From Octopus sinensis (Eukaryota): a stretch of DNA of 64,000 nt. The notes beneath the pieces are model-generated. The model did no database searches. It saw only the letters and a program-made list of their open reading frames with translations, and was not told the DNA's origin. A program made the translations under genes and the position numbers. Positions 9,503 to 45,460 of this stretch are shown in pieces (positions within the stretch are counted from its first letter, which is position 1; every line of letters starts with the position of its first letter). The stretch spans positions 43,648,001 through 43,712,000 of the forward strand of contig NC_043007.1 in NCBI RefSeq assembly GCF_006345805.1, written 5' to 3'.

Positions 9503-9682
9503 GTAAAAAGTGAAAAAACTACAGAAGGCTTGTTTTAAAAGGTTAAAGAATATATATTTAAGTCAATATGTCTGAAGAATATTATTAATTTTTTTCTTAC
9601 AATGACATAGTTTAGAAGAAAGACCGGTTTCGCGTTTGGCTTTTCAAATTTCTTACGTCGTTATGTTTATGTTTATATATAT

Positions 9683-9715
<33 letters not shown>

Positions 9716-11750
9716 TGCAAATACAGGTCTATATAGGCACAGGGAAAAATGCAGGGTGGAAGGTAGAGTACAGAAAAAATTACGTGTAAAAACCAAATTC
9801 TCTATAATATGTAAGAAATATATGTATAAAAATATATAAATAAAATCAAAGTAAAAGGTATAATGAGGTAAAAAAAACTTGTGCGTGGACATAATATAGA
9901 AAGCAAGTTCTATCTGTAGTCTTGGGGGGACCAAAAACGTAACAAAAATTTGGCCACGTGTGGGCATGATCCGAAAAATTCTGTCCTTGAGTTTAGTCAT
10001 GTAGTGGGGTTTAAGCTGCTTTTCCAGATGAGCCATTTTTCCATGTCGCATAGACCGCACTTTCCGCTGCCGTTGGTGTAGGGCTTACATTTGGCTAAAA
10101 TCTTCCAATGGATGTTGCAACTGACACCTTTATCTTTTAATGACCATATATGACTGGATAATTTTGTCGTTTTCCTTTTGTCCCAGTATCTTTAGTGGGC
10201 ATAGAGTCCACGGTAGCTTCGTAGATGATGGTCTCGGACATGCAAGCTCCATTTAGCGGGCACAATTTTTTTGTCCCTGCATGAACAGCTGGTTTCATAT
10301 TGTGGTTTTTGTGTGTTGTGTGCGATTATATTTTTAAAATTGGTAGTTGAGCTGAAACTGATTCTTAAGTTGTGTTTATTGAAGAGCTTCTTGTAAGTTG
10401 ACTGGAAAATGTCTATCTATCAGTGCTAAGAAATATTTACATATATTGAAGGTCACCTCGGGTGTGTAGGGAGGTGTGAACCAGATGATCTTCCTATTGC
10501 TATTTCTCCTCTTCTTTATTGTTGGGCTAGTGAGAGGTGTATAGGTTATTTCTTCGCTAAAACCACTATCTTTTAAAGCCTTATTATATACTGGGAGAGG
10601 CTAGAAATTCTCTTACTAGTGTTTTTAACTAAATTTTTAAATAATATAGGGGGATGGAATGAACCTACATTAATATAACTAAGTCTATCATTGGGCTTCC
10701 TATAAGGCTTACAGATGTTCTTATTTAGATCTAAGGATACGTCTAAGAAACTGACAACCGCCAGGTTGGTATCTATAGTTATACTAAGTCCGAGGTTTTT
10801 CATTAAATGGATAATATCCGTCCTAAATCGATCCTGTGCTGGTCCATTTGTATTAGCGGTTAAAGCGAGGGCATCATCTTTGTAGATGGTGAAGTATACG
10901 TCAGGAAAGGTCTTATTCAACGTATCGAGTAGAAATAATCCAATAAGAGCGCATATGCCTGCTCCATCATATGACCCCATGCTCACATCGAAAACACCCT
11001 CTGTGTCGGTAGTTTTGACCCACTCTGCGTTCTCGCTGAAAAGTAAAGTCTTTCTAGCATGGAAGATTATATCCTTATCCTGTGTACTGATTTCTATGAA
11101 ATTGCTTGCGAAGGTGAGGGCTTTATCTAGCAGTTCTTTAGAGATAGAGGCATAAAAATCGACAATATCGAATTGTGTAAACCTCGCTTTTTTCTTATTC
11201 TCAATGGCTTTAAACCAGTCAACGACTTCTATATTTTTGGACCATTATACTAGCCTAGTGGCGGTCTTAATTTTTGCATTTATTTTTCCTAAAATTTCTT
11301 TACGACTAATGCCAAGTTCTGATTTAGCTGGGTTAATAAGCCTACATTTAGGGTTGGATAGGAAGTTCTCTTTGTGGTCTTTGATTGTAATAAAGGCCTC
11401 TTTTTTGGGAAGGACCTCTATTTTTTTTTCATCTAATTTAAGTCTAGCGGCGATAACGCTAGCTTCTTTGTTAATTTCGTTATAGGTCTGTGGCCTAGCC
11501 TTGGTGTAATTATTAATGATGCAGTTGTGTAATAGTTGTGAATATTTGCTGTTTTCTACCAGGTACAAGTTCTTGGTTTTGTCGGAAAAAAGTGCCCTTT
11601 TCTTGGAGCTTTTTATGTAATTTATATCTTTTTTCAGTTTGTGTTGGAAAGTGTTAAAAGACTTACGAAATTTTATTTATTCATAAGCTTCCGTAGGTCC
11701 ACTTCGAAGTCTTCCAATCCTTTGATCTTGGGAGGGAATTTCTTAGATTA
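9500..11750 (-). mobile_element. Penelope-like retroelement remnant (RT + GIY-YIG endonuclease + 3' pseudo-LTR), disrupted
   Basis: EAFITIKDHKENFLSNPKCRLINPAKSELG, MGSYDGAGICALIG, YKDDAL, FLDVSLDL, PYRKPND; Cys-rich CPLNGACMSETIIYEATV near 10200-10290. Confidence 0.9.
9616..9654 (-). ncRNA. Minimal type I hammerhead motif, U3-A8 variant
   Basis: Minus strand AAGAAA-t-TTGAAAA-GC-caaac-GC-GAAA-CCGG-TC-TTTCTT; palindromic helix III ACCGGT, GUC site; sense to and downstream of the PLE ORF. Confidence 0.7.
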
Positions 11751-17658: not shown

Positions 17659-18949
17659 TTGGGTTGGCAACTAAGTTCCCGCCCTTTTTTAAATTTTGGA
17701 ATTTATTGCGTTTTTAAATTTTGGAATCTATTTTTTTCGAGAATTCTATTTTCGAATCATTTTCGAATCTATTTCTTTTTTTCTAGTTAATTTTAGTTAT
17801 TTTTTGTTATTTTCAGATCATTAAAATGGGATGTCAAGTTCAGAAAAACGAACATTTTCGACAACTCCTTATTTTTGCTTTTAATGAATGTTCTAAGGCC
17901 GCAAAAGCTGCTCGCGACATTTGTGCTGTGTATGGAGAGGGTTCCATAGCTGAAAGAACCGCTCGTGATTGGTATGCCAAGTTCAAAAATGGAAATTTTG
18001 ACCTCAAAGACGCACCTCGTTCTGGCCGTCCAGTTGAGTTTGATGAAGAGAGATTAAACCAACTTTTGCATGAAAATTCTCGTCAAACGACAAGAGAACT
18101 GGCAAAGAAAATGGAATGCTCCCACACTGCTATAGAGAAGCATCTTCACTCGATGGGAAAGGTTCAGAAGTATGGAGCATGGGTTCCGCATGCTTTAAGT
18201 GACAACAATAAAAATCAACGAGCCACAATCTCCGCTGGTTTGCTTGCTCGTCCCCGCTCAGCTCACGGACACAAGCTACGATTTCCTTACCGAATCATTA
18301 CTGGCGACGAAAAATGGTGCCTGTACATCAATATGAAGCAGCGTAAGGAATGGCTTAGCCCCGGTAAACAAGCGACACTGCGTGTGAAACAAGATCTTCA
18401 TCCGCATAAAACGATGTTGTGCGTATGCTGGGACTGGGAAGGGATTATCCATTACGAATTGCTTGAACGGAACCAAACGTCAACGCGGAACTTTATGTTC
18501 AACAGATGGAACGAGTCAACACGGCTATTCAAGAGAAAATACCTAATCGTCAGCATGGAGTTCTTCTGCTGCACGACAACGCCCACCCTCATATCGACAA
18601 TATGACCAAGGAAGTCATTCAAACGCATGGCTGGGAAGTGTTGCCACACCCACCGTACTCTCCTGATATGACACCAACGGATTTCCACCTCTTTCGATCT
18701 CTTTCAAATGCTATGCGCGGAGTTTCGTTCAATACTGATGCAGAATTGAGAGAGAGGTTGGTTGGATCAATTTTTCGAGTCGAAATCAGGTAATTTCTCC
18801 CAACGAGGTATTGAAAATTTTGTTGAACGTTGGAAAGAAGTTGTAAACAACAAGGGTGAATACATTTTTGATTAATTAGTTGTTATTTTTTATTAAACCT
18901 TTCAAAAGATTTAAATTTAAAAAAACGACGGGAACGTAGTTGCCAACCC

Positions 18950-25644: not shown

Positions 25645-25805
25645 GAAAGAGTCGAACAACAGTACTCAGGAGTCGAACAACAGTATTCAAGAGTCGAACA
25701 AAACTCAAGAGTTGAGCAACAATACTCATCAGTCGAACAACAGTACTCAGGAGTCAAACAACAGTAATCAAGAGTCAAACAAGTGTGCAGAAGAGTCGAA
25801 CAGCA
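25645..25805 (+). repeat. 21-bp minisatellite in the gag N-terminus
   Basis: About 7 copies of gagtcgaacaacagtactcag. Confidence 0.85.
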
Positions 25806-28265
25806 GTTAGTGGAATTAATATGGATGTCGGGAAACACTGCATGTTCTTTTTCGTCAGACAGCTTAGCGAATGCTATAACTGAATTTAGTTATAACCCAG
25901 AAGAGGGTATAACTTTTTCAGCGTACTTCAGCAAATACGAAGAAATCTTCAAGGAAGAATGCAAGTGTTGGACAGACGATGAAAAGGTGAGACAACTGTT
26001 ACAGAAACTAGGTTCTTCAGAACATGAAAAATACTGTAATTTTATCCTGCCTAAAAAAAATAAGAGAAATCTGTTTCGAGGGAACAATTGAATCGCGATC
26101 CAAAATGTTCAGTGATAGGAGTTCCCTGTTTAACACCCACTGGGAGTGTTTGAACTTAGTAAAAGAAGAGGACGAAGATTTTGTCAGTTATGCCGGAATC
26201 GTTAATAAAATGTGCGAAAAATTTAAACCGAAGGAATTATCTCCGGACATATTTAAATGCCCCATCTTTGTGCAAGGTGACGGCAAACAACGATGCAAAA
26301 AAAAGTGCACGGATTCTTATAAAACTAGAGCAGGACCAGAATTTAACTCAACAGTCAGAAACAGAAGAATGTCAAAGAATTATCAACCTGCAACAGAACG
26401 TAAAGAAAATTAAAGAAAATTTCTCTCAAGTACAGATATATAGACCGGGAATAAATAAACAAACAAGAATATTAGGACGAAATCCAGGAAATGGATGTGG
26501 AGGTCTGCGTTTTAAGCAAGACTGTCCATTTAAAACTCTGAAATGTTTTAGTTGCTAAATAGTAGGACATAAACGCTCGCACTGCATAACGAAGCAAAAA
26601 AGGTCGGAAAAAATTGTTCAAAAAAGGTTTGCTTAACGAAAGTCGTGACGGCACCAAAAACGGAAAGTATGTGTAAAAATAAAAGACGCGAACCTAAAGC
26701 TACAACAAGACACAGGTAGCGACATTACAATTATTGATACCGACACCTGGGAGAAAATTGAGAAACTTACATTAAAGAAAGCATCGAAAAATGTGCGAGG
26801 CTTCACAGGTGAAAGATAACACTTTTTAGGCAAAATTGTAAGCGACATTACATTTCGTAGTAAAATATATAAAGCAAAAGAGATTGTGTTAAAAAATGCG
26901 ACAAACTTGTCCGGTATTGACTGGATGGCGTTGTTTGATTTATAGGACTTCCCCATAAATCTGTTCTGTAAAAATATTTTGTGTAACATCATTCGAGAGC
27001 TGCCAGTAACTGTTCAAGATATAAAATTAAAATCTGAGAATGACAAATACACATTGCAAAGATGAAAGAAACGTTGAAGGAAAAAGAAAATACAAATAGA
27101 CGTAACTCAAATGCAAACTATTTTTCTCTGTGTGATGTGTTGATGTACACACAAAGATTTGTGCCAGCCGCACTACAAAAGCAGGTATTAAGTGAATTTC
27201 ATATAGAACACCCAGGGATTTAAAGAATTAAATCAGTAATGTGGAGTTACGTGTATTGGTCCACTACAGACCGAGATATTGAACAATTGGTGAAATCCTG
27301 CAGAAGTTGTGCTCTTGCAGCAAAGTCAGCACCGGTGAAATTCCAGTCGTGGCCTAAGAAAGACAGTCCGTGGTCCAGGCAACATATAGATTTTGCAAGA
27401 CCGGTAAACGACGCGTATTATCTGATCATAGTAGACGACCAAACCAAGTGGCGTCAGATATATAAACGCAGCCAACCAATCTCGAAAATAACAACTTTTT
27501 GCGCGATACGGTATCCCGGACACAGTTTTCGGAGTACGAATTAAAAAATTTCTGTTAGAGGTATGATCAATCACATCTCTACTCTGCCGTACCACCCGAG
27601 ATCAAATGGGCAAGCAGAATGGTTCGCAGACACATTTAAGCGAGTACTAAAAAAAAAAAAAACGACAGGAAATGTGTTAGGTAATGATGCAGCACTAACT
27701 CAATTCTTAGGGGTTTACAGGGTAACACGTAACACAAACACCTGTTCAGGCAAGTCGTCCGCAGAGCTAATGTTCGCCCGAAAGATAAAATCAATTTTTG
27801 ATAAATTGTTACTTGCAAAAAAAAAAAAAACTTATAGGGAAAAACCCAAGAAACACAACAAAGTATGTTAATGTGTGAGATTAAGATAATTTCAAAATAT
27901 ATAACAATGGAAGACAAGGTTGGTGGGACGATATAGTGAAGAAAAGAGTAGGCAGTATGATGTGCATAATAAAAGGTCAAACAGGAGAGCATAAAAGACA
28001 TTTGAAGCAGTTGAAGACTACACATACCGAAAAAAGAGAAGAAATACCGATGGAAGTTTGTTATGACTTGTTCGACGTTCCGACACCAAAAGAGGTTGAA
28101 CCTATGCGGATCAGCAATAGTAAACGTAAACAAACAGAACAACTAGAAATAGTCCCTAAGCGGAAAATAAAATCTCAAAAAAGGGAGAGGTGAGGATGAA
28201 AAAAATGGATAAAATTAAACAAACAATTTGTACTTCTAACAGAAATTAAATCTCAAAAGAGGAGA

Positions 28266-29183: not shown

Positions 29184-30122
29184 TATTATTATTATTATAA
29201 ACTTAAGAATAAAAATTATTATAGTACAATTTTGGTAAATTTGGCATTAATTGTTTATAAATAATCTCTTTTAGTATTGATTTAGAATACAATGTTCGTA
29301 TCCACTGGGTAGCTATCTGCACAAATGTACATGGTATTTGTTTTCTGTCTCAAATAATTATGTCAGACGTGATGTTTTTGCATTTAAGGAATGTTTAAAT
29401 GACAATGTTCCACCGGTATTCATTGTCTTGTAATGTGTGAATGTTCTCAACTTTAGAAATATCCTTTTCATATTCATCTCAAGGCAGTGTCTTCTATTCG
29501 TAGCATATTGTTTTATCAACAACGTAGGAAGCATAAGACGGTAATAGCTTTTGGGCAACTACCGTTTATTTGTGTAATATCCTTCATAGATACGTGATTT
29601 AATCAATATTTTCGCTTGCATCTAGGAAATCTATGTGAATCATTATTTCTTTTGTTTAGCAGGTATTTCTCTTATTCTTCGATCGCAAAAGCATAATCTT
29701 CGAAACACGCGCTGACGCAGCGGTCACGAGTCTAAGAAAGGCTACACTTCTTGTCAATATTGACACGCTCTCGTGTTTCTTGGATAGTGAAACTCATAAC
29801 AGAATACTGTTTCCATAAGGTGTTGCTGCTTTGTGCACGTATAACAGAAACAAGACCTAGAAAAATAAACCCAGCCAACTGATTGGGATGACGTCACTTA
29901 CTAACTCATTCCTACATTCTGCCCTAACATGCTGTCTGTTCTCTCTTACTTTTATATCAGAAAATAGACAGGACTCTTCTCTTCGAAACTGACTGCTCTT
30001 GTTCCACTTCATTTCACCCCCTCTCAAACTGCCAAATTTCTGTTGCCAGTTCTATATTTAAGAAATGAGGAATTATGTACATTATTTACATTTGACGAAT
30101 ATTTGTCCTCATCTTGTTGTTA

Positions 30123-30166
30123 ACACAACGTTTAGGCTGATACACCCGCCAGCCCTCATCAGGTAT
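30123..30166 (-). ncRNA. Degenerate hammerhead motif
   Basis: ATAC-CTGATGA-g-GGCTG...CAGCC-TAAA-CG-TT-GTGT; G12 changed to U. Confidence 0.55.
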
Positions 30167-30239
30167 CTTGGGGAAATTTCGAACCGAGGTTTTCGATGTT
30201 GTTATTATTATTATTTTATTTTTATTTATTTATGCGCTT

Positions 30240-30535
30240 TTTTCAAGCCTAGCCAGACTCATGGGCCCGGTTTCCCGGTTTCTGTGGCGTATGTGTTCCC
30301 CGCAGCTGGACGAGACGCCAGTCCATCGCAGCGTTACTCAAGAAACAGGAAGAAAGAGTGAGAGAAAGTTGGGGCGAAAGAGTACAACAGGGGTTGCCCC
30401 CCCCCCTGCCGGAGCCTCATGGAGCTTTAGGTGTTTCCTCTCAATAAACACATACAATGTCCGGTCTGGGAGTCGAAACCGCGATCCTTCGACCGCGAGT
30501 CCGCTGCCCTAACCACTGGGCCATTGTGCATCTCC
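30240..30535 (-). mobile_element. tRNA-derived SINE family C
   Basis: Head tggcccagtggttagggcagcggactcgcgg...gtttcgactcc; (TAA)-type tail. Confidence 0.8.
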
Positions 30536-30609
30536 GGTCACTGCCTGGAATCGAACTCGGGATCTTATCGTTAGTAGCCCATGCTCTTAACCACTATGCC
30601 ACATGCCCG
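30536..30609 (-). pseudogene. tRNA-like sequence or SINE head with Pol III A and B boxes
   Basis: tggcatagtggttaagagc...gagttcgattcc; acceptor stem pairs poorly, so not a functional tRNA. Confidence 0.6.
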
Positions 30610-30734
30610 CGGGCATGGAGTGAATTTTTAGGGCTTATAAATCTATCCTTCCTATTCTTCCTTAATACCGGCTCCCATATGCTAATATAAAAAATACCTT
30701 AGGTATAGGAACCCAGGTTCGAAATTTCCCCAAG

Positions 30735-30780
30735 ACACCTGATGGAGGATTGAGGGGGCATATCAGCTGAAACGTTGTGT
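30735..30780 (+). ncRNA. Degenerate hammerhead motif
   Basis: ACAC-CTGATGG-aggattg...cagct-GAAA-CG-TT-GTGT; A9 changed to G and stem II eroded. Confidence 0.5.
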
Positions 30781-31387
30781 TAACAACAAACAAGATGAGA
30801 ACAAATATCCGTCAAATGTAAATAATGTAAATAATGTTTCTATTGCCACTCGTATTATATTTCCTCTAACCCTTTACACACATCATTAGGCTCCCTACTA
30901 ATTGCTATCAACATGCAATACCTACTCGAAAACGTCAGAAATTGGATTTCTTTCCCGTCCATGTTTTTTCCTGCAGTCGTGAGTTTGCAGCTCTTCAAGA
31001 AAAACATCAAACACACCAACGCCTTGGCCTGCAAAAGCAATGAAGTCAAGTCAGTCCCTACTTCTAGAACAACCTGTTGGAAATTATGTATGCTTAACTT
31101 TTTGTAGGTGAGGAGTGTTTCTCCTCGAGATCTTCCTTTTCAAGATAGCTTTATCTGGCAGTTACAAGATAAGATAAAAAGTCTTCAGATACAAGTACAT
31201 GTTGGCGGTGGTGGTGGTGGTGGTGAGAATTTAACTTCCGGTTCTAAGATTTTTTCCTCCTCATTTTTGAGCACTTATTGGATATAATTGCTTTTGTTAT
31301 TGTTTTGTCAGGCACTGTTCTGGTCAGTTCAGTCCCTACTTCTAGACCAACCTGGTGAAAAATATGCATGGGTAACTTTTTATAGGT

Positions 31388-36650: not shown

Positions 36651-37499
36651 CAACGTCAAGTTTTCATTTGCTGAAATTCAGCTCAGAGTAAAAGAAAAAA
36701 AGAAAAATTAACCAGTTATGACGAACAAACACTTCCCACCTCTCGAACAATACTAATAATTTTTTTTCTGTAATTTAATTACAGCAACGTTCGATTCTAG
36801 CTCCCTACAACACACTACCGGCAAGTACTGGAAATCTTTTATGCATAAATTCAAATATCGTTGTTACTTTAATAACAATAAGATGTATTTTAACAATGTG
36901 AGCATTTAGTTTGCTACTGAACAGCACGTAGCAAACTAATACCAATCAGCAATGACTTATACAACAAACTGACTTATACACACATGTATGTATGTATGTA
37001 TGTATGTATGTATGTATGTATGTATGTATGTATGTATGTATGTATGTATGTATGTATGTATTAATCCGCATTACTAACCTCTCAGCAAACGAGGAAGTAT
37101 TTAAACTAAACGAGGACTTTTATAATTAGTTTAGCATTAGAGAAGGCGGGATATAGAGTAAAACTGAAATTCTTTAATGGTAGTAATAATAGAAATAATA
37201 AAAGTAGTGGGATGGACCATCCTAACAATAATCAAAATGCATAATATGAAGAATACAACTAACCACCAAGAACGGTCATTGGCAAGCGTTTAAGATGGAA
37301 AGTGTGTAATTAAAATACAATAATAGAGTACCTAGAATAAAAAAAAAACAGTGCAAACTTACATGAGTTTGTGCCAAATAAAGTGCTAAGTGACTTAGAT
37401 AAGAATGAACTTACCAAGAGGTCCCATTCAAATAGGGGAGGTAACAGATACATAAGCTCTGCCAATAACACTCTACAAATAACTGCCAAATATATATAT

Positions 37500-37900
37500 A
37501 ATTATTTGTGGGAATATTATTTCTAACTTACAGGGAAAAATTCAATTTAGAAATACTAAATCAAATTTCACAAAATATAATAATATATATAAAAATTAGA
37601 AAAAAACACCTTTTATCAATTCAAAATGAACAATTAAATTACACCATCTAGAAAATTACATATAATAGAAATATAAAAAATATAATAACAATAATATACC
37701 AATGATTAAGTAAATTGCAAAATAATAATAAAAACGTATATATTTGGTAGAATAACGACACGTGTTTCGTGGCTATATTTAAGAAATGATTACTGTAAAA
37801 CAATTAATTGTAATAGAAAAATCACTTCGATATAAATATAGCCACTCATCAGGTTAAAAATAAAGTAGAATGATAAAATATTTAATTAATAAATATACGT
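37500..37900 (-). repeat. PLE pseudo-LTR-like repeat
   Basis: Bounded by (TA)n, contains an HHR, partial inverted copy at 42316-42490. Confidence 0.7.
37753..37856 (-). ncRNA. Canonical type I hammerhead motif with a long (about 77-nt) helix II
   Basis: TAAC-CTGATGA-GTGGCTATATTTA...TAAATATAGCCAC-GAAA-CACGTG-TC-GTTA; all core residues present, GUC site. Confidence 0.88.
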
Positions 37901-37929
37901 AAAAATGTTTTAAAATATATATATATACT

Positions 37930-37983
<54 letters not shown>

Positions 37984-38300
37984 CATATAAGTTTAACAAT
38001 TAAGGATAATCTCTTAATAAGGGATCTTAACAAGAAATTATTTTCGAATTCTTTTCTTTTATGAGGTTTTCACGCTAGCTACCCGATAATTTCTTGTTAA
38101 GATCCCTTATTAAGAGATTATCCTTAATTGTTAAACTTATTCCGAAATACTTTTCATTACCCGACATGCAGTTCGTAAAAAGCCCGCCATTTACCGGATA
38201 TATGATTTATAAACATTCCATGTGCTTGGCCGGAGTGAGCAGTTGTCTGTTCGTCTTCGCTACGTAAGGTTGGTAGTTTATTTATGATGTGTTCAGAATC

Positions 38301-38358
38301 AGTTCTGCTGACGATCATTAGACGTAAGTTGAATGTGAAATCACGGTGATACAGAACT
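38301..38358 (+). ncRNA. Type I hammerhead motif (array unit 1)
   Basis: AGTTCTG-CTGACGA-t-CATT-a-GAC-gtaa-GTT-g-AATG-t-GAAA-TCACgGTGA-TA-CAGAACT. Confidence 0.82.
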
Positions 38359-38779
38359 AAATTCATTTTTTTAAATGTCTTGCTTTGAAAAACTGCATTT
38401 GGGTATGATTAGTATAATTTTGGTAGTAATGACTTTGTCCCTCCTAGTGTGAGGCATTTATGTGTAATAATGCCCTCTATACAATATAGATATAATTAAT
38501 TTGTTCAAAAGAAAAAAATTATTTTCGAATTCTTTTCTTTTATGAGGTTTTCACGCTAGCTACCCGAAATTTCTTGTTAAGATCCCTTATTAAGAGATTA
38601 TCCTTAATTGTTAAACTTATTCCGAAATACTTTTCATTACCCGACATGCAGTTCGTAAAAAGCCCGCCATTTACCGGATATATGATTTATAAACATTCCA
38701 TGTGCTTGGCCGGAGTGAGCAGTTGTCTGTTCGTCTTCGCTACGTAAGGTGGTAGTTTATTTATGATGTGTTCAGAATC

Positions 38780-38837
38780 AGTTCTGCTGACGATCATTAG
38801 ACGTAAGTTGAATGTGAAATCACGGTGATACAGAACT
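38780..38837 (+). ncRNA. Type I hammerhead motif (array unit 2)
   Basis: Identical to unit 1. Confidence 0.82.
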
Positions 38838-39258
38838 AAATTCATTTTTTTAAATGTCTTGCTTTGAAAAACTGCATTTGGGTATGATTAGTATAATTTT
38901 GGTAGTAATGACTTTGTCCCTCCTAGTGTGAGGCATTTATGTGTAATAATGCCCTCTATACAATATAGATATAATTAATTTGTTCAAAAGAAAAAAATTA
39001 TTTTCGAATTCTTTTCTTTTATGAGGTTTTCACGCTAGCTACCCGATAATTTCTTGTTAAGATCCCTTATTAAGAGATTATCCTTAATTGTTAAACTTAT
39101 TCCGAAATACTTTTCATTACCCGACATGCAGTTCGTAAAAAGCCCGCCATTTAACCGTATATGATTTATAAACATTCCATGTGCTTGGCCGGAGTGAGCA
39201 GTTGTCTGTTCGTCTTCGCTACGTAAGGTTGGTAGTTTATTTATGATGTTTCAGAATC

Positions 39259-39315
39259 AGTTCTGCTGACGATCATTAGACGTAAGTTGAATGTGAAATC
39301 ACGTGATACAGAACT
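39259..39315 (+). ncRNA. Type I hammerhead motif (array unit 3)
   Basis: As unit 1, but helix III is the perfect palindrome ATCACGTGAT. Confidence 0.82.
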
Positions 39316-39436
39316 AAATTCATTTTTTTAAATGTCTTGCTTTGAAAAACTGCATTTGGGTATGATTAGTATAATTTTGGTAGTAATGACTTTGTCCTCC
39401 TAGTGTGGCATTTATGTGTAATATGCCCTCTATACA

Positions 39437-39510
<74 letters not shown>

Positions 39511-39511
39511 T

Positions 39512-40837
39512 ACTCACATCAACGAACTCCCACATCGCATCAAAAAAGAATTCGTGATAGAAGGGGTTAAATTCATCCTGGAAAATAACTTCTTCGCCTT
39601 CAAAGACAACTTTTACCGACAAAAATCCGGGACTGCGATGGGTACACGAATGGCCCCCTCCTTTGCCAACCTAGCCATAGGATATCTAGAAATCAGTCTG
39701 TATCGTAAGGTTCTAGAAAGATATGGCAGCCCTTTCTCCATCTACATAGAAAACAACTGGAAGAGATACCTAGATGACTGTTTCATTCTTTGGCATGAAA
39801 ATATAGAGAAACTCAAAGAATTCCAAGAAATTTTAAATGGACTGGACGTAAACATCCAATTCACGATGTAATATAGCCAGCAACAACTCCCCTTCCTCGA
39901 TATCCTCATTAAGAAAACTAATAATGTAATAGAAACAGACATATATTATAAACCTACAGATTCTAAGCAATATCTTCCATTCAATTCATGCCACCCCAGA
40001 CACACCAGGATGAATATCCCCTTCAATCTAGCAAAAAGGATATGCACTATAGTTTCTAATGCAAACACCAGAGACACACGACTACAAGAACTAAAAGATA
40101 TCCTTATCACCAGGAACTACCCACTTTCACTTATTGACATATGCATTCAACGTGCCCTTCAACTTAACATCCAGGAACTGAGACATCCCAAATCAAAGAA
40201 AAACTTACGACCAAAGGCCTTACCATACATCTCCACACACAACCCTCTCAACAATGAAGCCTTCGGCACCATCCTCCAAAACATACCTCTCCTAAAAAAA
40301 GACCACAGAATGAACACAATCTTCCAAACACACACGATCATAAAAAGCAAGAGACAGCCAAAATCTATGAAAAGTCTCCTGACACAAGCCCGAATACACT
40401 CTTCAACACAGAAGCCGACAGTAAAAAAATGTGGAAGACCCAATTGCGGGATATGCGATTATCTAATTGAGGGATCAGTGTTCTCCTTCAAACAGGGACA
40501 ACGGTTTACAGTGAAAAGCAACTTCACATGTGCTTCGGAGAACCTAATATACACACTAACCTGCTCTGGGTGTCAAGAGCCGTACATAGACCAAACAAAA
40601 AATAGTTTGCGTAAAAGAATGGCCCTGCACAGATCCCAGATAAGAATTCCCCAAAACAGAAAAATAGCTTTCAGCCAACACATAGATACTTGCGCCAACA
40701 ACAAAACACCAGGCTTCAGGATTTTCCCCCTCTACCAATTTAGGGACGATACAACCTCGAGGCAACGAATAAGTAAAGAAACTCTCTTTATTACAAAATA
40801 CAGGCCACTTCTTAACGGGTCTACGACAAACGATTAA
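39512..40837 (+). pseudogene. PLE reverse transcriptase C-half, thumb, Cys linker and GIY-YIG endonuclease; one in-frame stop at 39869-39871
   Basis: GTAMGTRMAPSFANL, WKRYLDDCF, LPFLDI, YYKPTD, SCHP, CGRPNCGIC, NLIYTLTCSGCQEPYIDQT..LRKRMALHR. Confidence 0.92.
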
Positions 40838-40989
40838 TACACCTCAACTTTAGAATAACAGAAATACACACGCAATATTACATTCCAAAGAATCCATTAC
40901 AAATCAGCCCCAATCACAGCTATAATCCATAACGCCATAACGTGCCAACTTCAAGTCATACAACACCTCACTACTTCCACTCATTGATA

Positions 40990-41097
40990 TTCTCCCTTCT
41001 CTTTTTTCTTCTTCTTCCTCTTCTTCTTCATCATCATCATTATCATCATCATCGTCGTCATCATCATCACCCATCTCATCATCTTCTCTCCTTCTTC

Positions 41098-41129
<32 letters not shown>

Positions 41130-41376
41130 ATCATCATCATCATCATCATCATCAACATCAACAACATCGTCATCTTCTTCTTCTTCTTTTTCTTTTCTTC
41201 TTTCTCTTCTTCTTCTTCTTCTTCTTCTTTTCTGTCTTTTCTTCTTCTTCTTCTTCTTCTTTCTTCTTATTCTTGTTTCTTCTTCTTCTTCTCTTCTTCT
41301 TCTTCTCTTCTTCGTCTTCTTCTTCTTCTTCTTCTTCTTCTTCTTCTTCTTCTCTTCTGCTCCACCTTCTACTTCT
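40990..41376. repeat. (TTC)n/(TCA)n tract
   Basis: Seen directly. Confidence 0.95.
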
Positions 41377-41699
41377 TAACTTTATCACTAATGCTTTTTA
41401 GTATAACCCCTACGCAAATTCCATAAACAAACATTTCAATAGAAATATTCTCCTGCTAGCCGTCACTTGTATTCAAAATACAATCAAGGCACTCCCAAAT
41501 TTTTCCACCCATTCTCCTCATCAACCTTCTTCTTCTACCCTACCAAGAATTCACGACGATCTCGAACATACAAGTGCAAACAAGAGAGACAGAGAAAGGC
41601 AGAAACAAGAAAAATGCCACTTATATTTGAACACTATACAAATATTCCTTTAAAAAAACTTTTCTTTTAATTTTTCTAAATTTAATTATTTAATCGTTA

Positions 41700-41736
41700 C
41701 AGTTGAAAAGGTCTCAAAATGACCGAACCGGTACTG
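41700..41736 (+). ncRNA. Minimal hammerhead motif, U3-A8 variant, one A missing from GAAA
   Basis: CAG-TTGAAAA-GGTC-tcaaaat-GACC-GAA-CCGG-TA-CTG. Confidence 0.55.
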
Positions 41737-41783
41737 AAATGTTCTTTATAAATTATTTTAGCATTTTCTATCTTGACTTGTCT

Positions 41784-41880
<97 letters not shown>

Positions 41881-41941
41881 TATATATATATATATATGTA
41901 ATATAAGATGTATTATATATATATAGTATATGTGTATATAT

Positions 41942-41981
<40 letters not shown>

Positions 41982-42111
41982 TATACACTATACAATATAT
42001 AATATCCATATACATATATATATACATATATATATATAATTATATATATATATATATATATAGAATATATATATATAATATATATATATATATATACATA
42101 CATACATATAT

Positions 42112-42228
42112 ATAATAAATTAAAAAACGAAAATACGCACACTTATAAGTTTTAATATAATTAATAATTTTTTTAAAATTATATTAAAACTATGTAAGTG
42201 TGCGTATTTTCCTTTTTTAATTTCATAT
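42112..42228. repeat. AT-rich imperfect palindrome
   Basis: gaaaatacgcacactta...gttttaatataatt / aattatattaaaac...taagtgtgcgtattttc. Confidence 0.85.
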
Positions 42229-42315
42229 ATACATTATATACCGCGTGGGGATAATCGAAATTCCTCTTTTCTGTTACTATTATATATATATTACTATTAA
42301 TTTTTTTACTATAAC

Positions 42316-42483
42316 CATTTCTTAAATACAGCCACGAAGAACGTGTCGTTATTCTACCAAATATATACGTTTTTATTATTATTTTGCAATTTACTTAATC
42401 ATTGGTATATTATTGTTATTTATTATTTTTAATATTTCTATTATATGTAATTTTTTTGAATTGATAAAAAGTGTTTTTTTCTA

Positions 42484-42490
<7 letters not shown>
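42316..42490 (+). repeat. Partial inverted copy of the 37590-37790 repeat (3' half of the HHR only)
   Basis: catttcttaaatacagccacgaagaacgtgtcgttattctaccaaatatatacg. Confidence 0.85.
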
Positions 42491-42524
<34 letters not shown>

Positions 42525-43729
42525 ATATACATATAATATATATATAGGCACACCAAGGGAAAATGAAAGTAGCTAAATAGGCTTAGAAAGAGAAAGAGAG
42601 AGAGAGAGAGAACGATAAAGAGGGAAAGTGAGAGAGAAATAAAGAGGGAAAGTGAGCAAGAGAGAGAAAAAGAGTGAGTGAATGAGAGATAGATAGATAG
42701 ATAGAGATAGATAGATAGAGAGAGAGAGAGGGAGAGAGAGAGTGTGGATGTCAGATCGATGATATCTGACCTTTTACGAATCAGAATATTTATGTGAGTC
42801 AAGTAGATGCGTGTTCATACTCAAAGTCGTAATAAGTTGTTCCAATATTTTTCCATATTTCTAAATAAACTACTTACAATATTTATTTCGTTGTTTATTC
42901 ATTTCAACAAGCACCGCATAAATTTGAGAACTGTCACCATAAGATAGCTGTTTTACTGGTATGCCGGTAGTTACTGTAGTGGAATGGGAGTTTGTAAGAA
43001 GTAGAAATGTTATAAGGTTTCTTCTGTAATGCAATGAAAAACCAGTACAAAATTATCAACGTTCAAATACATACAGAAAAATTATCGCAGAAAAGATAAA
43101 ATCCTTCAGATGCCTCGCATTATCTGGATTATGAACGTAACAGGCTACAAAAAGTCGAACATGGGAGTTACTAAGATAATATGGAAAATGAATTTTAAAA
43201 TATCCACCTTTACATTTTATCTAAAGGAATTAAAAAAAAAGATTTGTAGCTTATAACTTCAAAGTGAATACTGCAATTGATAGTTCTTTCTCATCCCCAG
43301 AAGAAATGACTCGAAAATTAACAGATATTTATGATGAGTTTCACAAAGAGAAAAAATATCAAAAGAAGAAAAAACTTGAATTATTGAGAAAATTTGAAAC
43401 AAATTTACTTAAGAACTAAAGATAAAAATGCAGATTAAATCAGCTTTGTAACAAAGTATATTTAAAAGTAAATGGAATTTAAACACTCTTTAATAAGTAT
43501 TAAATAAACAGGTACTAAAACTGAAATGAAATAACCAAAGTCAAGCAGATAAGGGATACAAACGAAAGAATTGGACATAACAAGTTGTGGCATTGAAGAA
43601 AAGAAATTGTATAAAGAATAGGACAGCCAGGTGAAAATCTGGCTGTCCTATTGGCTTTTGTTCACGGATTTGAGTTGAAGGAAATAAAAGCATAGAAATA
43701 TGTAATTGTGGGCATTAAAGGTTATATTG

Positions 43730-44526: not shown

Positions 44527-45460
44527 GTAAAAACTGTCTCACACTCAAAGCGGTGTGCTAGGTGCATTCTCTTGATGAAACCACCACTCTCCACTTTGCT
44601 ACAGGTCAGGCCGTTGTCGTCTCAGCGCGTCTCGTAAACGCTTCGGTATTTCCAAGTAAAATGTCTGGTTAATAGTTTGACCAGGAGGAACAAATTTTGT
44701 GTGAACAATTCCTTTTGCATCGATAAAACAAATCAGCACCGTCTTGATATTGGACTTCACTTGACGTGCTATTTGGAGACGTGGTAACGTTAAATACTTC
44801 CATTGACCGGACGGCTGCTTCGATTTCAGGTCGTAGCCGGTAATGACCTTCGGAAAAAGGTCCGGATCAATTTCCAACTATTCTTTCAGTTTACGACACT
44901 CATTCAGTCGTGACTGCTTTTGATTTTCTGTGACCAAGTGAGGCACTAATTTTGCTGCAACTCTTTTCATTCACAATTCCTTACTCAAAATTCGTTAGCA
45001 GGAGCTCCAGGACACACCAGTCAAATCAACAAGTCCTCCAAAACCAGTTCGTGAATTTTCATGATGTTTCATTCGTTCGGTGGCCCTGAACGAGGTTGAT
45101 CTTCAAGTGACAAGTGACCATTCCTAAAGTGTGAAAACCAGTTGTAAAGTTGTAAACTTGTGATTTGCTCATGGCAGCGTCCTTGTAAGCTATTTGAAGC
45201 ATGACAAATACTTTGGCCGCCATTTTCTCCGGCAGAATACAGAATTTCACAGAAGCACGCTGTTCCGTCTTTTAAGCTATCGCAAAAATCGGCGACCAGG
45301 GGACAAGCACTGCAAAACAATGATGCACCACGTGCAGTACGACTTTACACTATGACGCCGGTAGACAGACTGATGCCTGAGGGTCGCATCAAGTCGTTTC
45401 TTGAGGTGGAAGTCTGAACCACAGTGAACGTTTCCGGTTACTTTTGGGTACCTCTTCGTA
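44527..45460 (-). mobile_element. Mariner-like transposon, 3'-truncated and decayed
   Basis: EQRASVKFC, AMSKSQVY, SLEDQPRSG, RVAAKLVPHL, KVITG, FIDAKGIVHTKFVPPGQTINQTFYLE; left end tacgaagaggtacccaaaagtaaccggaa. Confidence 0.85.

Follow-up and report, generated by a model that had tools for sequence, protein, structure and literature searches.

We identify a tandem array of 2.9 units at 38035-39443 of a 64-kb stretch of Octopus sinensis DNA (hereafter the window), with an intact type I hammerhead core in each unit. By sequence criteria the array qualifies as an animal non-LTR retrozyme, an identity that an earlier note on this DNA had put forward and that anatomy and precedent support. It is a real, new family within a published class; the class itself is not new. 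We propose that this retrozyme was inserted by the machinery of a Penelope-like element (PLE), which we consider quite probable, and that it likely entered a (TA)n microsatellite in one event with the PLE enzyme acting in trans. A ligated circle, rather than an uncut multimer, may have been the template, a reading to which we give slightly less than even weight. Retrozymes have already been published for corals, mussels, amphibians and fish, with PLEs as their suspected carriers; PLE mobilisation of retrozymes was proposed in PMC7229834, and a recent preprint links vertebrate retrozymes to PLE pseudo-LTRs (Li, Clavereau and Pollet, bioRxiv 10.64898/2026.07.22.740005). The insertion step of retrozymes becomes testable with a family such as this one, young, high in copy number and with clean ends of the PLE type.

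Tandem units and their hammerheads

The tandem repeat described in the earlier note as three units of 479 bp is real by both TRF (38035-39445, period 479, 3.0 copies, 98%) and alignment, although the count is better given as 2.9 and the length needs revision. All units lie on the plus strand. Unit 1 (38035-38515) is 481 nt long, non-coding and 33% GC; unit 2 (38516-38994) has 479 nt and differs from unit 1 by two 1-nt deletions; unit 3 (38995-39443) is truncated, ending 135 nt beyond its own cut site where unit sequence merges with (TA)n. Since unit 1 holds the majority letter at every alignment column, the true unit is probably 481 nt. No substitution separates the units within the unit comparison, where unit 2 carries its two one-base deletions and unit 3 seven small indels; an eighth unit 3 indel and the sole listed substitution sit at the element end, outside that comparison. 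This all-indel pattern, set against the transition-rich differences between the locus and public runs, suggests that the indels are probably assembly or consensus errors, as the earlier note had suspected, and we rejected them as a sign of divergence. Both the indels and the precise unit count may be wrong. The description of the units as non-coding holds: the longest ATG ORF is 33 aa on the plus strand and 69 aa on the minus strand, and a Pfam scan of five unit frames gave no match. A tRNA search found none, and a promoter scan, whose model is bacterial and unsuited to an animal host, found nothing.

A 25-nt linker (38491-38515) is present at both internal junctions and at neither flank, and it bears on two explanations that would make the repeat a secondary product. 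Were the tandem an assembly artefact of one unit, one would expect the differences seen here, only small indels that become more frequent towards unit 3, as in an unpolished long-read consensus, and among the listed contig pieces none spans the stretch. However, a linker confined to internal junctions does not fit a simple assembly duplication; the array sequence also recurs in many independent runs, and the bins holding both junctions are deeply covered in 4/4 runs (177-nt bins, in which the junction is not isolated). We regard an artefact as scarcely credible. Local DNA amplification, in which a single PLE-derived monomer was inserted and then expanded as a minisatellite by tandem duplication or unequal crossover, is improbable. 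The near-identity of the units suits it, and such a model is discussed by Li, Clavereau and Pollet (bioRxiv 10.64898/2026.07.22.740005), but the linker is absent from both flanks, so the monomer as bounded here could not generate it.

A strict type I descriptor run over the whole window matches only at 38308, 38787 and 39266, all on the plus strand, and the same descriptor finds nothing on either strand of 150 dinucleotide-shuffled windows. One hammerhead per unit, with the stem I, cores, GUAA cap and AUA site previously noted, is recovered in this way in 3/3 units. Hammerhead 1 occupies 38301-38358 (plus strand), with a predicted cut after 38351. Descriptor and folding place its stem I at 38301-07/38352-58, the first core at 38308-14, a U-U pair at 38315/38336, helix II at 38316-35, GAAA at 38337-40, helix III at 38341-49 and a distal stem I extension at 38296-99/38361-64. 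Hammerheads 2 (38780-38837) and 3 (39259-39315), both plus-strand descriptor matches, have predicted cuts after 38830 and 39308. The 7-bp stem I, the CUGACGA and GAAA cores and the AUA site are common to all three. Stem I continues through a 1x2 loop into the 4-bp distal extension, and helix II consists of 4 bp, an A-G mismatch and 3 bp under the GUAA cap. The non-consensus U10.1-U11.1 at the base of helix II, likewise recorded earlier, is seen by the descriptor in 3/3 copies. Helix III had been called palindromic throughout; it is a perfect palindrome in unit 3 only, and in units 1 and 2 an extra central G interrupts it, which leaves either 3 bp closed by a CGG loop or, in a dimer, a duplex containing a G-G mismatch.

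Thermodynamic predictions favour a dimeric ribozyme. The minimum free energy fold of the isolated motif is not the hammerhead (z -0.1 to -1.1); the motif minimum is -9.9 kcal/mol and the active fold has -8.8 kcal/mol. For the local piece and the circle alike, the active hammerhead fold costs 2.7 kcal/mol relative to the minimum. Predicted pair probabilities in the monomer are 0.87-0.97 for stem I, 0.2-0.7 for helix II and 0.05-0.07 for helix III. A helix III duplex formed by two units reaches -11.9 kcal/mol, which favours the dimeric hammerhead form, and this form is known for animal type I hammerheads (PMC4209133). The option of dimeric cleavage raised earlier is supported by this anatomy and precedent, and self-cleavage would probably be better as a dimeric ribozyme. 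Cleavage at successive predicted sites would release monomers of 479 nt as assembled (38352-38830, plus strand) and 478 nt (38831-39308, plus strand). Closed into a cut-to-cut circle, the monomer has a circular minimum of -120.5 kcal/mol (z -5.5; 0/60 shuffles as low) with 68% of bases paired, and the folding z of -5.5 on the plus strand compares with -3.2 on the minus strand.

A search with the Rfam hammerhead model, suggested earlier as a check, did not recover the motif: neither the gathering score nor a limit relaxed to E 10 gave a hammerhead across the array, and what Rfam did return was hairpin and microsatellite noise. Rfam was equally blind to eight descriptor hammerheads in seven related PLE loci (best E 2.5), so its negative result on the array says little. 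With its U-U, the array motif lies outside the canonical hammerhead as defined by an Rfam Hammerhead_1 score and a paired 10.1-11.1. The motif pattern had 0 matches in the metagenome and viral contigs searched.

The U-U at the helix II base is natural and not a product of decay. The axolotl hammerhead HHR_Amex2, as described in PMC7229834, has the same U-U helix II base as the array and cleaves 22% in an hour as a monomer and far better as a dimer; U-U is reported as the best-tolerated mismatch at 10.1/11.1 (PMC3088659). A second precedent comes from 41 loci encoding relatives of the protein of the neighbouring PLE. Sixteen of these loci contain a hammerhead (18 matches in total), and 6/18 carry U-U; these six lie 172-205 nt beyond the ORF match and have four different helix II sequences. 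Shuffled sets of these loci are expected to give 0.43 matches and 0.07 U-U matches per set. Given the axolotl precedent and the 6/18 PLE-locus hammerheads, we rejected U-U as a sign of decay.

These loci yielded no parent PLE for the array. A covariance model built from 10 of the 16 hammerhead-bearing loci (two misaligned rows, three near-duplicates and L002 were excluded), whose structure covaries strongly, scores the array motif at only E = 2, and blastn of the unit against the 41 loci gave no match. Within the set, the U-U hammerheads belong to L004, L006, L007, L021, L025 and L026, about 170-205 nt after the ORF match, with a helix II that varies yet stays paired and a CCC/GGG-type stem I. 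Another locus, L001, has identical hammerheads at 58 and 3757, 3.7 kb apart and one on each side of the ORF, and is probably a full-length PLE with both pseudo-LTRs.

Insertion ends and the nature of the template

The array sits between two (TA)n microsatellites, a left target flank at 37915-37986 (TRF 37915-37989, period 2) and a right target flank at 39444-39512 (TRF 39437-39512). Between the left flank and the forward units lies a short inverted arm on the minus strand (37987-38041), which is an exact 55/55 reverse complement of 38086-38140 and confirms the inverted 55-bp piece first noticed at the 5' end; its outer end runs into (TA)n. The arm and the start of the forward arm have 7 nt of microhomology in common (38035-38041), with a chance of about 1.4e-4 per junction as calculated from unit composition. 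On the unit, the outer end of the inverted arm falls 270 nt past a cut site, and the 3' end of the array falls 135 nt beyond the last cut site, on a short hairpin, so that the two ends are 135 nt apart. The insert crosses three cut sites with no scar. Ends at 135 and 270 nt past the cut indicate that the insert was not begun at a ribozyme-cut end.

A (TA)n target and an inverted 5' piece are PLE-type insertion features. PLE insertions are reported to show inverted 5'-truncated copies and a (TA)n bias (PMC8557442). The purified PLE system PAc nicks AT-rich DNA and both strands are extended; it initiates within the RNA at 111-118 nt of its ORF, on the downstream side of a hammerhead that cuts at +26 (PMC11167929). 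In our analysis the ends, arms and microhomology suggest PLE-type footprints; the short arm fits either a second priming on the same RNA or a fold-back of the cDNA. Head-to-head geometry is common in the window, as two further elements illustrate. One, within (TA)n at 1913-2300, consists of two inverted arms of about 160 nt that share a compact hammerhead (2002-2052 minus, 2092-2142 plus), one arm being about 75 nt longer. The other, at 30056-30860, has older hammerhead-like arms at 30072-30191 and 30710-30835, and the roughly 520 nt between them are probably later insertions.

We propose the following sequence of events. A plus-strand transcript covering at least two units would cut itself after 38351, 38830 and 39308, and the resulting monomer of ~480 nt could, on the pattern published for coral, mussel and axolotl, be ligated to a circle with a strong fold. 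A PLE protein supplied by an intact copy elsewhere would then nick (TA)n DNA, and reverse transcription would begin inside the RNA, 135 nt past the cut, and run almost three rounds of the template. The 55-nt inverted arm would be added at the other target end by second priming or cDNA fold-back, and the two arms would be joined at the 7-nt microhomology.

Because the linker is confined to internal junctions, the template must have held the junction, and so was a circle or a multimer and not a lone linear monomer. The choice between these two concerns the template step only: the same element and PLE enzyme could have used an uncut multimeric transcript of another array, with the hammerhead a slow or idle passenger and no circle formed. 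We rate this as a serious but doubtful alternative. Its best precedent is PAc, for which uncut RNA is the dominant substrate, ribozyme activity is unneeded in vitro and ribozyme mutants insert normally (PMC11167929), and among Xenopus retrozyme dimers only 1/9 was cleaved in vitro, leaving 8/9 uncleaved (bioRxiv 10.64898/2026.07.22.740005). Slow cutting is also predicted here from the U-U base and the weak monomer helix III, and the absence of scars where the cDNA crosses three cut sites fits a ligated circle and uncut RNA equally. Against it, the units show 0 substitutions in a family that has thousands of copies and visible variants, as repeated copying of one molecule would leave them; the cut-to-cut circle is strongly structured; and circles are the predominant RNA form in coral, mussel and axolotl (PMC7229834).

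The ligated circle, if it was the template, invites a fuller reading that we offer tentatively and think rather unlikely to hold in every part. The whole 1.46-kb insert would be a single rolling-circle reverse transcription event, in which a PLE enzyme of the Neptune type primed synthesis from each of the broken (TA)n ends on a single ~480-nt circular RNA, 135 and 270 nt past the cut, and the cDNAs were joined at the 7-nt microhomology; the family would still be active in octopuses, and the U-U hammerhead would come from a PLE lineage with that trait. If this rolling-circle reading is true, the proposed PLE mobilisation of animal circular RNAs would gain from it a direct footprint in the genome as well as a substrate for in vitro work. 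From the array ends one can predict the start sites of reverse transcription on the RNA, and variants private to one unit could separate a circular from a multimeric template. We view the mechanistic footprint as useful yet unproven.

The neighbouring PLE and the age of the array

Outside the array, on the same strand and 72 bp away, lies a 5'-truncated, broken PLE fragment with RT and GIY-YIG domains and a CX4CX2C linker of the Neptune/Nematis type (39515-40834, plus strand). The earlier note had proposed mobilisation by a PLE RT such as this one; PLE-type machinery is supported by anatomy and precedent, but the downstream RT itself is truncated and broken. Compared with a 557-aa homologue the fragment starts only at residue 128; an in-frame stop interrupts it at 39869-39871, and YID stands in place of the YIG motif, defects that leave it unable to supply the enzyme. 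Named relatives of its protein include Argonauta hians and Octopus vulgaris entries. Its own 3' pseudo-LTR retains a decayed minimal hammerhead at about 41700-41737 (plus strand; recognised in the sequence, with a G-C base pair and a CCGG helix III), to which the descriptor scans gave no match and which is unlike the array motif. The unit compared with the PLE 3' region and the two flanking repeats gave a best E of 0.018, which is AT-rich noise. We rejected the adjacent PLE as the enzyme source: this copy has been truncated and broken, it predates the array and its sequence is unrelated. The two are independent insertions into one microsatellite cluster, the PLE being the older, and the family of that PLE could have acted as carrier in trans.

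It is very improbable that the array represents the pseudo-LTR region of an autonomous PLE that arrived as one insertion with the downstream RT-GIY-YIG fragment. Strand and a 72-bp spacing would fit such an origin, as would the presence of type I hammerheads, some with U-U, in PLE pseudo-LTRs. However, about 70 bp of (TA)n separate array and PLE, the PLE possesses a hammerhead remnant of another kind and a 3' region without similarity to the unit, the two differ in age, no ORF follows the hammerhead within the unit, and the 41 related PLE loci show no similarity to the unit. In an autonomous PLE, the pseudo-LTR would be found beside the RT-GIY-YIG ORF and again 3' of it; here the unit resembles neither the 3' region of the neighbour nor the 41 loci.

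The age difference is read from public sequencing runs. At least half of 31 words sampled from 38145-38500 occur in 18/24 listed runs, and all 31 in one run. The 18 word-rich runs come from eight studies under five organism labels, and the source sample may be among them; none of the 18 is on record as RNA. The two runs that are on record as RNA hold 0.10 of the words each, which is no evidence either way, and six runs with words are guessed to be RNA. The summed contig depth of the three hammerhead bins is about 1,900-8,700 times that of low-copy contigs in 4/4 runs compared over 37300-42600, a rough measure that is not a copy number; it suggests a family copy number in the thousands. Among the family variants are copies that lack 3 nt at 38273 or have a shortened T run at 38366. 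The 40 best-supported substitutions (274 further ones exist) fall in the PLE ORF (18), the PLE 3' region (5), the flanking repeats (16) and the array (1), a count in which reads are split among the three units so that differences private to a single unit are invisible. One of 40 in the array against 18 of 40 in the PLE ORF indicates that the array is younger than the PLE. On these read-derived differences, the array is near the family majority and the PLE copy is aged.

Relation to known elements and other repeats in the window

The closest known counterparts of the array include the metazoan non-LTR retrozymes of coral, Mytilus and axolotl (Cervera and de la Pena 2020, PMC7229834), which, as described there, share its short, low-GC tandem units, one type I hammerhead per unit without an ORF, a highly self-paired predicted circle and thousands of copies. 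Their units span 150-450 bp, compared with ~480 nt here, and the array differs in its cephalopod host and in a helix II that is longer and contains an internal mismatch. The PMC7229834 retrozymes have been demonstrated to cleave and to form circles; for the array both are predicted. Retrozyme target-site duplications, when present, exceed 4 bp; both ends of the array lie within (TA)n. The vertebrate definition of Li, Clavereau and Pollet (bioRxiv 10.64898/2026.07.22.740005), a run of no fewer than two units bearing complete hammerheads and a minimum free energy below -5 kcal/mol, describes the array as well; their size range of 51-972 bp includes its unit, and most of their families have at most seven units. 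The vertebrate link to PLEs rests on homology and co-occurrence across 35 genomes, with no mollusc reported among them; the link for the array rests instead on its insertion ends, and the 41 loci yielded no parent PLE. Plant LTR retrozymes have a type III hammerhead in two LTRs, whereas the array has type I hammerheads in head-to-tail units and falls outside that group.

EN+ PLEs of the Neptune/Nematis type (PMC8557442, PMC4209133; PAc in PMC11167929) share with the array a (TA)n target, an inverted 5'-truncated piece, a 3' end downstream of the hammerhead and a partial-tandem layout. Unlike them, the array has no ORF, and its hammerhead is larger than the minimal pseudo-LTR motifs (model E = 2); the typical PLE tail is 30-40 nt, compared with an end offset of 135 nt here. 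Our literature search found no paper on cephalopod retrozymes, although invertebrate cases may be listed in the supplements to PMC7229834 and to the 2026 preprint; the words hammerhead, ribozyme and retrozyme occur 0 times in the main text of a 2026 repeat annotation for Octopus vulgaris. In Drosophila virilis Penelope, the intron extends up to the 5' end of helix I (PMC4209133). In unit 1 there is a splice-donor-like site at 38235 and an acceptor-like AG at 38296 or 38302, at the start of helix I, signals that are common by chance.

The surrounding DNA is AT-rich and full of microsatellites. No host exon was recognised among the 247 of 399 stop-free frames of at least 55 aa that were scanned against Pfam; the scan returned transposon domains, DUF7083, an Atrophin match and one sub-threshold Lit match (E 0.001). 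We rejected the Atrophin match, which comes from a TC microsatellite. Transposon remains at 336-1324, 17787-18790, 25768-27541 and 44602-44877 comprise LTR-type RT/RNase H, mariner-like transposases and DUF7083 with an integrase zinc-binding piece. A weak minus-strand match to the PLE hammerhead model at 9614-9656 (E 0.8), with a CCGG helix III, is possibly the decayed end of another PLE, and unannotated frames lie upstream of it on the same strand (9689-11676).

A separate, very high-copy repeat at 37592-37915 carries an intact minus-strand type I hammerhead (motif 37856-37753) whose helix II is unusually long, its 13 bp forming the base of a ~75-nt hairpin (z -4.1), with a palindromic helix III and a GUC site. 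Cleavage is predicted after 37757, and some 165 nt further downstream the repeat reaches its 3' end within a short (TA)n. A plus-strand relative at 42106-42500, 83% over 42289-42497, does not have the 5' half of the hammerhead; it sits between (TA)n tracts with its own 130-nt self-inverted segment in front.
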